DNA of 47,442 bases from a virus (lineage: Duplodnaviria; Heunggongvirae; Uroviricota; Caudoviricetes). Made by a program: the position numbers. The DNA is taken from positions 1 through 47,442 of IMG/VR virus record IMGVR_UViG_2913112809_000004, one strand, 5' to 3'. Below, one piece after another: positions 27,001 to 30,000 of the stretch (position 1 is the stretch's first letter; every line of letters begins with the position of its first letter).

Positions 27001-30000
27001 TCAGCACCGGATTAGTCCAGCCGAATTGCTTAATGCTTTCTACCAGTTGTGCCACCTGCTCAGGGCTGTGTGTCCTGGCATTGTGTGCATACGGAGACAG
27101 TTCTTGTAACGGGCGATAGACGATCTTCAATTTCTCGCTCATACAGCCTCGCTTGATGAATAAAAAAGCTCGCCAACAGCCAGTGCGCTGGGTGCGCGGC
27201 GGGTGCTGTTGGTGAACCATGGCATTATAACAGCCCCTCACTAAAGAGCTGTTATAATGCTGATGTGTGGTTACAACATTAATATTTTCAATGCTATATA
27301 TCCGCTTATATTCGTCCCCTTCAATAATAACATTCACACAATCAGCACTTCATAAGCTCATAGAAATAAAAATGCCCCACTCTGGGGCAATAAAACAAAA
27401 AACAACTTAATTATTCCGCATCTAATTCTATAGCCCATATATGATTCGGACTATATGCTTCGCTTGCGCATAAATTCACTTTCATATCTGAAAGTATAGC
27501 AGCCATTGCAATTTTCCTCATTTCATCAGCGACATAATTATCCGGATAGTTTTGCGCCCCAGGAATAATCCAAACACCGCCAGTTGAACTGACAACATAT
27601 ATACCTTTCCTATTAACATTTGCGTCAGCAAAATATTGAGTCAATTTGACTCCCTCTACAATTCTGGCTGTGGTTCCTCCACAGTTAGTTCTAAACTCCT
27701 GGCTAACACCTGCAAATGTTTGGATAGATACCAAACTTATCATAAAAACAAAAATTTTAATCAATGCCTTAAAGTTCATCTTTATCTCCATTCTTTACCA
27801 GAAAATCATCAATACTTTGCAAAGTCAACAAAGTGGATTTGCGTTTTATGAACTTCTTAAATTTTAATAAATCAGCTTGCGATAGTTCATTAGTGATAAA
27901 ATCACAGGTTAAAAAACTATTAGTTTTATTATTTTGATGGCATTGATCTGGCGCAAACTCTATCCAAGGGTACTCTCTCCAGGCTGGGAATTCATCAGGG
28001 AATCCCGCAAGATGATACCCATCTTCATTCGGTGCAACAGATAATCCACGAAATAAATCTCTTCGATAATTTCTGTTTCTGTGCATCCCCCCCTCTATCG
28101 CACCAAAAGTTACTCTATACCATCCAATTATTTGTGATAATGGAACACCACCTAATGCTGCATACTCATTTTCACTTGGGTATGGGCTGTATGTACCGAG
28201 TATGCCGTTCACATCAAATAAATTAGGCGCTGGTGCAATGACATAAATATAATACTCGTTAAAGCTCCCAAGCATATTTTGCCCGATCAAATGAGCCTGT
28301 CTTAATGTCGTTGTTGTAGATACATAACCATCATTATATCTGGTATTCCCTGTTACAGTTCCTCGGGCGTGATCATATAAATTAATATTGATTGGCGTAC
28401 CACGTTCATACGCTTCATCTTGTCCTCGGGGTATTAACCCACCAGAACGTCTCACTTCATCTGGTGATCTGGAGTCTGCTCTATAAAAATCATTAGCATA
28501 AGACGTAGAAGATATGAAAACCAAGGTGACAAACCAAAAAACAATTCTATTCATGATACTTATTGTGCGCTCTGAACTATGTACAATGACATTAACGCAT
28601 CTGCAAAACAGATAATTGATGCAAATCAATAAATAGAATTAATCAAAAACATAAGACATATATAATTTATCCTGAGATTATAATTTCAGCTATTACGCAA
28701 ATTTTTTATTTAATTTTGTAATTTCCAACTAAAGTATAAATATCAACAATTGATTCCTGATACGCGCTCTTTAATCCAGCCATATACAAACGACTCGTTA
28801 GCCTCCCGTTTCTCTGCCAGCTCCAGGTAACGGTCACCCTGCGTACAGTTCAGTGCGGTCAGCATTACCCGTTCGCCATCCCTGCCACGATTTTTCAGAT
28901 ATGCCCGTAACGCATTAATAGTTCGTGGGCCGATACGTCCGTCTGCATCCATATCCGGATACAGTTTCCCGCGCAGGTTGAAAACGTTCAGCCAGCGTTG
29001 AAACATTTTTGACGCCACGGTTGGCCCCATGTTGACGCCTGTGTCGCACAGCTCTGCGGCAATATCCGGGGACAAATTTGCCACCTGGTCAAAACGTGGG
29101 CCGTACCAGTAATCCGCCTCGAGTATTTCCAGCGCCTGCCCGCGCGTCAGGTCACGCATATCGCCCTGATATCCGTGCGCCCGGGCGACTTTTTCAGTAA
29201 TGCCCCATTTGGTCGGACCACCTTTATCATCCGGATGGTTGACGTAACCGCCCTCTTTTCCCAGAACTTCGTCAAAAATTTCATCTTTCGACTTCATTTC
29301 AGTACCTTCGTAATGCAAGGATTTTTGAAACATTCCCACGTGCACGTATCACCAGCACGCAGAACAGCAGATTAAAAAACACCACCAGCCAGTTCGCCGC
29401 TAACAGACGACCACACAGATAGCTGAGTGGCGCAAGGGCATAAAGCAGCATCAGCAGCCAAGCCAGCCATGACATCAGCGGTTTATGTCTGGAATCATGA
29501 CGACGATAAAAAAAAAAGCGTCAACACGATAACCGTGCATAACGCTACATTCAGCAATCCAGAAAGGTTATCAGGCATTGCCGCCTCCCCCACCCCGCAG
29601 GCGGGAGAACAGGCCGGACACCAGTGATGCGATATCCTGCTGGTGGATGAACGACAGAATCTTCACCGACACCACTGACACCAGCACTGCACACAATGCG
29701 TCGACAGGCGCTCCGTCAAACCCTGTATGCTTTACCAGCCAGGATGCCAGAACCTCTGCACCCAGCACGCCGATAATGAACGACACCAGAAAATGCGCCG
29801 CCACACGCCAGGCTGAAAGCGCCTGCGGTATCGTTGCCACAAATAACGCCCCGGCGAACGCACCAAACACAATCCCGAAATCCGTTCCGGTAAACAGCCC
29901 GAATACCGTCGCCCCGCCGAGCGCCGCAGCCGTGCCGGAACCGGATAAGGGTTCAGACATACTTTTTCTCCTGTAAATAAAAAAGGCCACCAGCGGCCCG

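Follow-up and report, generated by a model that had tools for sequence, protein, structure and literature searches.

The lysis cassette of the prophage studied here contains a small gene that appears to be cut by a run of ten Ts, and the tenth T very probably reflects over-calling of the homopolymer in the Ion Torrent reads from which the contig was assembled; judged from sequence comparisons, the real tract is most likely T9. The window (the whole stretch of DNA analyzed, 47,442 nucleotides) comes from Escherichia sp. E4742, of cryptic clade II, and carries a Rac-like, lambdoid prophage with an LT-II enterotoxin. With nine Ts, the region around the tract most likely represents one intact 92-aa holin-family gene, called holin2 below, which is already annotated in phage phiP27 and in LT-II prophages. 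We consider the finding most probably an ordinary one, concerning a known gene whose biological interruption is not real. The distinction matters for the toxin as well as for the phage, since annotating holin2 as disrupted would wrongly suggest an LT-II prophage unable to lyse its host and free its toxin.

A holin-family gene apparently split at a homopolymer tract

The longest homopolymer within the window is A10 at 29508-29517 on the plus strand, which is T10 on the coding (minus) strand. Upstream of it on the coding strand, an ORF begins at an ATG (29578-29576) that overlaps the TGA of the preceding gene, holin1 (29573-29571), by 8 nt within ATGCCTGA. This ORF has 27 codons, encodes MPDNLSGLLNVALCTVIVLTLFFLSSS, enters T10 (29517-29508) in the frame MPDNLSGLLNVALCTVIVLTLFF, and ends at a TGA (29497-29495) that comes 11 nt past the run. 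The sequence as given thus bears out two points of the initial annotation, that an ORF is interrupted at the A10 run and that its start at 29578 overlaps the stop of the upstream holin gene.

With one T fewer (T9) or two more (T12), the 27-codon ORF fuses to a 58-codon ORF at 29299-29475. The fused gene, holin2 (29299-29578, minus strand; split here into 29495-29578 and 29299-29475), has 92 codons plus a stop if the tract is T9, and its stop, ending at 29299, lies 1 nt before the endolysin ATG (29297). The initial annotation placed the end of the T9 frame correctly at 29299 and gave the product as 93 aa; the stop codon had been counted, and the restored protein has 92 aa. We take T9 as most likely the true length on sequence grounds, with the tract read CTT TTT TTT TAT, that is, L F F Y.

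The T9 protein matches PF05449 (Phage_holin_3_7) with 72.8 bits, against a cut-off of 25.4, over profile positions 2-79 of 80, and matches phrog_217 ('holin', PHROG 217) end to end with 123.8 bits. The unrestored 58-aa ORF alone scores 41.9 bits on PF05449 positions 27-79, and the 27-aa ORF alone gives no match. Hydropathy of the T9 protein reveals three hydrophobic segments (residues ~6-23, 35-52, and 59-76), which we read as three TMDs, together with a basic first loop (RRHDSRHK) and a basic C-terminal tail (RARGNVSKILALRRY). The features by which we recognize the Phage_holin_3_7/phrog_217 family are therefore all present: a full-length profile match, three hydrophobic segments, a charged C-terminus, and an adjoining endolysin gene. 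The initial description of the product as a small membrane protein, encoded by a second holin-family gene of the lysis cassette, agrees with these matches. PF05449 and PHROG 217 are themselves 'putative' holin families, so the function of holin2 is that of a holin by annotation; the literature yielded no experimental test of any member of the holin1 or holin2 families.

Apart from the tract, the gene has the appearance of an intact one. The exact T9 protein (P0001) is recorded on 27 public contigs, residue for residue, and this identity, together with the nearly complete match to the PF05449 profile, indicates that no further damage has accumulated in holin2. Among unique homologues, codon-position variation in the restored frame is 30, 19, and 43 for positions 1, 2, and 3, with the third position highest. 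No ribosome-binding site precedes the downstream 58-codon ORF.

Homopolymer errors in the window and in the assemblies compared with it

The exact holin1 protein is recorded at ten places, among them PDHY01000023.1, with which the window shares 100% identity over 8,390 bp and over 14,434 bp. This accession belongs to the draft genome of Escherichia sp. E4742, a strain of cryptic clade II from Hong Kong intertidal sediment, for which single-end Ion Torrent reads of 35-400 nt were obtained at 50x (PMC6639607). Homopolymer indels leading to frameshifts are a known weakness of Ion Torrent (PMC12046094). PacBio RSII reads of the same strain, at 172x, were later assembled by CANU into a single contig of 5,120,753 bp (PMC7716201). 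This PacBio assembly (VATS01000001.1, L006 in our set) has T9 and encodes an intact 92-aa holin2. The initial annotation had named a run length of nine in accurate reads as the observation that would overturn its view of the gene, and the PacBio assembly of E4742 essentially supplies it.

We compared the window with the PacBio contig over ~38 kb at the level of assemblies. Every indel between them is one base in a homopolymer, with the extra base in the window each time. Four of these are Ion Torrent over-calls, since the PacBio assembly and assemblies made independently from relatives alike have the shorter, ORF-preserving length: T7 in place of T6 at 33468-33474, which shortens a DUF1367/NinB-like gene from 199 to 159 aa; A7 in place of A6 at 9335-9341, which splits a 335-aa baseplate-hub-like gene; A8 in place of A7 at 3132-3139, which truncates a 181-aa tail-fibre assembly gene; and T6 in place of T5 near 37202, which cuts a 173-aa Q-like gene to 106 aa. 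Counting gene-breaking cases, the window therefore holds at least four +1 homopolymer errors in addition to the tract. The differences at the holin2 tract itself, at 31899-31903, and at 34083 are not assignable by this comparison of ORF preservation. At all six 8-base runs open to comparison, the two E4742 assemblies agree; long runs are not always miscalled in the Ion Torrent data.

The PacBio assembly has homopolymer errors of its own. It under-calls A5 as A4 at 36533 and T5 as T4 at 36797, breaking a 213-aa ORF which the window and four further assemblies keep whole. We dropped the use of this assembly as ground truth on account of these two sites. Its T9 is no proof on its own, given that a CANU-only assembly under-calls homopolymers at these positions, and the argument rests instead on comparators and joint probabilities.

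A sister strain, E4385, offers a second pair of assemblies from the two platforms. Over 8.4 kb, its Ion Torrent and PacBio versions differ by no substitutions and 12 indels, every one of which (12/12) is a +1 in a homopolymer of the Ion Torrent version, including the same T10 versus T9. The Ion Torrent +1 indels of E4385 also break its endolysin and ParB genes. The E4742 and E4385 prophages differ by about 0.85%.

The tenth T is also found in a second assembly. The Logan assembly of SRR6148341 (L174) has T10; as it matches the window over 17.9 kb with no substitutions and has the amber codon of the strain described below, SRR6148341 presumably represents the E4742 Ion Torrent reads. Introduction of T10 by the submitters' assembler is thereby ruled out, and the extra T is present in the reads themselves. 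At 9341, the Logan assembly of SRR6148341 agrees with PacBio. In the Logan assembly of SRR6148340, which has E4702-type sequence, the contig stops inside the T-run, which is what read-level ambiguity in length would produce.

Since the window derives from an Ion Torrent draft, apparent frameshifts at its A/T runs of ~5 bases or more are no evidence of pseudogenes. The holin2, DUF1367/NinB-like, baseplate-hub-like, tail-fibre assembly, and Q-like genes are examples of genes with such apparent frameshifts. The defect on which both platforms agree lies not in holin2 but in a putative major head gene of 342 aa, in which codon 218 (18023-18025) has changed from CAG to TAG. This codon is CAG in five relatives, and all 20 other differences from the locus L136 are synonymous. 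We found no suppressor tRNA in the window.

The window is, in addition, chimeric with respect to the PacBio genome. Positions 852-38227 map at 4.49-4.53 Mb and positions 37930-47442 at about 4.24 Mb, within another Rac-like prophage, to which the right-hand 9.5 kb appears to belong. The join lies near 38 kb, where about 300 bp are identical between the two parts.

Length of the tract among relatives

Outside the Ion Torrent assemblies of E4742 and E4385, the tract has a uniform length. Leaving those two assemblies out, we found 13 assemblies in which the tract is uninterrupted, and T9 is present in all 13 (L004, L005, L006, L008, L009, L010, L011, L012, L152, L172, L089, L175, and L176). The set consists of three PacBio assemblies, one Ion Torrent assembly (E4702), one NCBI draft, four Logan assemblies, three metagenome contigs, and one IMG/VR contig. 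T10 appeared only in Ion Torrent-derived assemblies, those of E4742 and E4385. The proposal that the gene is biologically interrupted finds no support in this comparison, with T9 present both in E4742 as assembled from PacBio reads and in every non-Ion-Torrent assembly carrying this allele.

The wider family points the same way. The tract is 9 nt long at all 120 IMG/VR loci, and 119 of them read TCTTTTTTT, in frame, a sequence that holds only T7 as an uninterrupted run. Given this predominance, the uninterrupted run of the present lineage arose by a synonymous CTC to CTT change. No instance of the tract turned up when GTDB species representatives were scanned.

Alternative explanations for the tenth T

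We favor an Ion Torrent over-call because it needs only a type of error already shown four times in the window and 12 times in the E4385 assembly. The main competing explanation, which we consider unlikely, is that the +1 frameshift is genuine, with holin2 of E4742 (and of E4385) having become a pseudogene recently by slippage at T9 and the CANU assemblies of the PacBio reads having under-called a true T10. It would have to combine a mutation with a PacBio error at the same base, and to do so in two strains whose prophages are ~0.85% apart, even if T9 tracts are mutation-prone and the PacBio assembly does under-call at 36533 and 36797. The recurrence of T10 with a second assembler speaks for a genuine insertion, yet it comes from what are presumably the same Ion Torrent reads, and four more +1 differences in the window have proved to be errors of that platform. 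That the putative major head gene carries a real amber codon fits a prophage that may already be decaying, but the remainder of holin2 is identical to intact copies and the tract is 9 nt long in every one of the 13 comparators. The frameshift was not reproduced in independent accurate sequencing of the same strain, where PacBio has T9, though with under-calling elsewhere.

Least probable of all, and by a good distance from the over-call, is that the tract is a functional slippery site. Phase variation, or programmed transcriptional or translational slippage, would then yield a 27-aa peptide comprising TM1 alongside full-length holin2 and so tune the timing of lysis, with T9 and T10 mixed in the culture. 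In other systems, runs of nine or more A/T are a cause of phase variation and of slippage by RNA polymerase, and a mixture would leave a contig end inside the run just as the Logan contig of the sister strain does. A dependence of the family on slippage is contradicted by the 119 of 120 IMG/VR homologues that have no run longer than T7, and the uninterrupted run not being conserved excludes programmed slippage as a family trait. Nor is there polymorphism in length on which phase variation could be seen to act: the 120 IMG/VR loci and the 13 assemblies all have 9 nt, and the two Ion Torrent assemblies alone depart from that length. The T10 product, moreover, ends after TM1, and the 58-codon ORF beyond it has no ribosome-binding site from which to be translated.

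Organization of the lysis cassette

The restored holin2 occupies the middle of a compact cassette on the minus strand. The upstream gene, holin1 (29571-29960, 129 aa), was identified by profile matches to Phage_holin_8/phrog_198, and its final codons (GGGGG NA) hold a GGAGG ribosome-binding site for holin2. The downstream gene (28743-29297, 184 aa) encodes an endolysin with profile matches to Glyco_hydro_108 and PG_binding_3. As this endolysin has no signal, SAR segment, or hydrophobic N-terminus by which it could be exported, it is of the canonical, cytoplasmic kind, and at least one holin-family protein must form large holes. Hundreds of E. coli chromosomes have the cassette annotated as 'putative holin | phage holin family protein | glycoside hydrolase family 108'.

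The type II heat-labile enterotoxin operon (27411-28554; A subunit 27769-28554, B subunit 27411-27779) follows directly on the 3' side of the lysis genes, also on the minus strand, and the same arrangement of an LT-II operon beside lysis genes has been described (PMC3252337). On the other side, a Q-like late antiterminator gene (DUF1133/phrog_753, 32185-32736, minus strand) is followed by genes for tRNA-Thr and tRNA-Gly (31710-31863) before the cassette begins.

Judging from lambdoid gene order, the Q-like antiterminator would drive late transcription past the tRNAs through holin1, holin2, endolysin, and eltAB, so that the LT-II genes would be co-transcribed with the lysis genes and the toxin set free on lysis. 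The GGAGG inside holin1, the 8-nt overlap, and the 1-nt gap before the endolysin gene suggest that holin1, holin2, and endolysin are translationally coupled. The predicted topology of holin2 is N-out/C-in with three TMDs, as in a class I holin. Alone or with holin1, as holin and antiholin or as co-holins, holin2 would permeabilize the inner membrane at a set time and so free the endolysin. In P2 (Y/LysA) and P1 (LydA/LydB) the antiholin role is borne by a separate gene, and by analogy one of holin1 and holin2 may be a co-holin or an antiholin.

Spanins and a displaced lipoprotein gene

The initial annotation had remarked that no spanin pair is apparent and had proposed a search for embedded Rz1-like lipoprotein ORFs. 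A lipobox scan of all ORFs of at least 25 codons, on both strands of the whole window, gave no candidate o-spanin or u-spanin, and none of these ORFs is an embedded Rz1-like lipoprotein ORF; in control loci, the same scan recovers Iss/Bor and a 51-aa lipoprotein, and the remark about spanins is accordingly upheld. Searches by tblastn with the small ORFs of relatives, and with approximate lambda Rz/Rz1 sequences, returned only chance matches, an outcome that we take as indicative.

That the missing spanin goes with an impaired cassette, as had also been suggested, cannot be drawn from the frameshift. The LT-II prophages SerU-LTIIb and Rac-SA53 likewise have no lipobox ORF around the cassette, and the record of phiP27 has no Rz/Rz1 annotated. 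The absence of Rz/Rz1 is thus not particular to this prophage, being common to the phiP27-type cassette (by annotation) and the LT-II cassettes examined. Of 279 Stx phages surveyed, 277 had Rz, and a two-member Stx2e cluster was described with a canonical endolysin and a classical holin (PMC8136144).

Relatives of the cassette do carry another small lipoprotein gene. A conserved gene for a 51-aa lipoprotein (phrog_7528, a family without an assigned function; lipobox LVGC) lies 0.4-1.6 kb after holin2, just past the endolysin gene, in 63 of 69 IMG/VR relatives, whatever the type of endolysin, and is also present at three of the loci compared (L001, L002, and L004) and, unannotated, in phiP27. 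The LT-II prophages (the window, SerU-LTIIb, and Rac-SA53) have no such gene and have eltAB in its place. IMG/VR matches labeled 'LT-IIA' were rejected as LT-II, being 28%-identical pertussis-like toxin genes located upstream of holins, and so are unusable for linking insertion of LT-II to loss of the lipoprotein gene.

The displaced gene is a small lead on how this type of cassette handles the outer membrane. We give a low probability to the reading that the phiP27/LT-II cassette family may lyse its Gram-negative host without a canonical spanin, with the 51-aa lipoprotein as a candidate outer-membrane component that was displaced by the LT-II operon; less likely as an alternative is a real T10, with holin2 recently inactivated or phase-variable. 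If the lipoprotein were an outer-membrane lysis factor, the final step of lysis would by nature be defective or altered in those members of the family that carry the toxin.

Comparison with known systems

As a sequencing artefact, the tract shows no difference from other Ion Torrent homopolymer errors, in which the same +1 in an A/T run of at least 5 creates an apparent pseudogene. As a gene, holin2 may be likened to lambda S105/S107, a class I holin with its antiholin, which is small, has three TMDs, an N-out/C-in topology, and a charged C-terminus, and is encoded upstream of a soluble endolysin. On this analogy holin2 would work in a similar way; the two have no sequence similarity, and holin2 has no dual-start motif.

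The Stx2e phage phiP27 has the same overlapping pair of holin genes, L28 and L29 (NP_543080 and NP_543081, both 'holin'), and L29 is 84.6% identical to the T9 protein. The surroundings of the pair differ. The phiP27 endolysin is annotated as a 125-aa protein unlike that of the window, and has been termed a metallopeptidase type (PMC8136144); stx2e lies upstream of the cassette, whereas in the window eltAB lies downstream; and phiP27 keeps the unannotated 51-aa lipoprotein ORF downstream, which the window lacks.

Other close counterparts are the two LT-II prophages deposited by Jobling, SerU-LTIIb (KU052038) and Rac-SA53 (KU052037). By tblastn, their proteins are 86.5% (holin2, ALP46943.1) and 69.4% ('holin', ALP46917.1) identical to the T9 protein, respectively. 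The toxin subtype and flanking genes of both differ from those of the window. Both have the same gene order of holin1, holin2 (279 nt, with a start that overlaps the holin1 stop), GH108 endolysin, eltA, and eltB, and in both holin2 is in frame, where the window has one extra T.

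Sequencing errors and an apparent chimeric join

Besides the tract that interrupts holin2, four single-base homopolymer over-calls in the window disrupt conserved genes, all four of which are unbroken in the PacBio assembly of the same strain and in independent relatives. A DUF1367/NinB-like gene is shortened from 199 to 159 aa (over-call at 33468-33474), a 335-aa baseplate-hub-like gene is split into 9311-9919 and 8911-9321 (9335-9341), a 181-aa tail-fibre assembly gene is shortened to 2714-3184 (3132-3139), and a 173-aa Q-like antiterminator is reduced to 37157-37489 (approximately 37197-37202). 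At 36533 and 36797 the error is the PacBio assembly's, not the window's: its A5 to A4 and T5 to T4 contractions at these positions disrupt a plus-strand 213-aa ORF (36317-36958) that the window and four further assemblies keep whole. The window and the PacBio assembly also differ by two intergenic run lengths (G5/G4 at 31899-31903 and A6/A5 at 34083) and by one substitution at 30242, beside the T9 run 30234-30242.

The window contig itself looks chimeric. Positions 852-38227 map to 4.49-4.53 Mb of the same-strain PacBio genome, the location of the prophage carrying LT-II, a heat-labile enterotoxin of type II, and positions 37930-47442, which contain the replication, immunity and integrase genes, map to another Rac-like prophage at approximately 4.24 Mb. 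The two alignments meet in around 300 identical bases common to both prophages (37930-38227), in the region of a DUF977 gene. Beyond this join, the true LT-II prophage has DUF1627, lambda-P-like and DnaT-like genes instead of the window's right part (38228-47442).

An amber codon in the putative major head gene

The putative major head protein gene (342 aa, 17648-18676, minus strand; phrog_6671, with a weak match to phrog_264) has a CAG to TAG change at codon 218 (18023-18025), a position that is CAG in five related contigs. The amber codon is genuine and occurs in three assemblies of this strain: the window (Ion Torrent), the PacBio one and one by Logan. All 20 other differences from the related locus L136 are synonymous, and the window contains no suppressor tRNA. 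This prophage may be incapable of making heads.

Gene content around the lysis cassette

Directly 3' of the endolysin gene, at 27411-28554 on the minus strand, the window has a complete LT-II operon with an A subunit of 261 aa and a B subunit of 122 aa. The prophage's host, an environmental Escherichia of cryptic clade II, came from marine sediment. In many LT-II and phiP27-type phages the slot upstream of the holins is taken by a second toxin (e.g. eplBA/ealAB or stx2e); in the window this slot (30000-31700) has no long ORF. Immediately before the terminase genes, a ParB_N-domain gene and, after it, one for a TET-associated glycosyltransferase (124 bits on PF20691; together 25426-27139, minus strand) hint at a phage DNA-modification module.

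Downstream of the endolysin, 63 of 69 IMG/VR relatives have a conserved 51-aa lipoprotein ORF (MPRTAAKWALVAILVPFFLVGC..., phrog_7528), as do the related loci L001 (5619-5774), L002 (5611-5766) and L004 (5720-5875). Genes for small TM proteins (phrog_1115, 4493, 4906) often come before it. This ORF is absent from the window (27140-28742) and from the other LT-II prophages, where eltAB takes its place. The lipoprotein may act in lysis at the outer membrane, or its gene may be a moron with no connection to lysis.

The Stx2e phage phiP27 (L013, NC_003356) also has this ORF after its endolysin, unannotated (4669-4824). Its holin1-holin2 module is the same as the window's, but its endolysin is different (L30, 125 aa, overlapped by the 71-aa ORF L31; 3779-4314). 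Because of this difference, and because many IMG/VR loci start the lipoprotein gene only 425 nt past holin2, the two holin genes seem to form a module that recombination joins to endolysins of different kinds.
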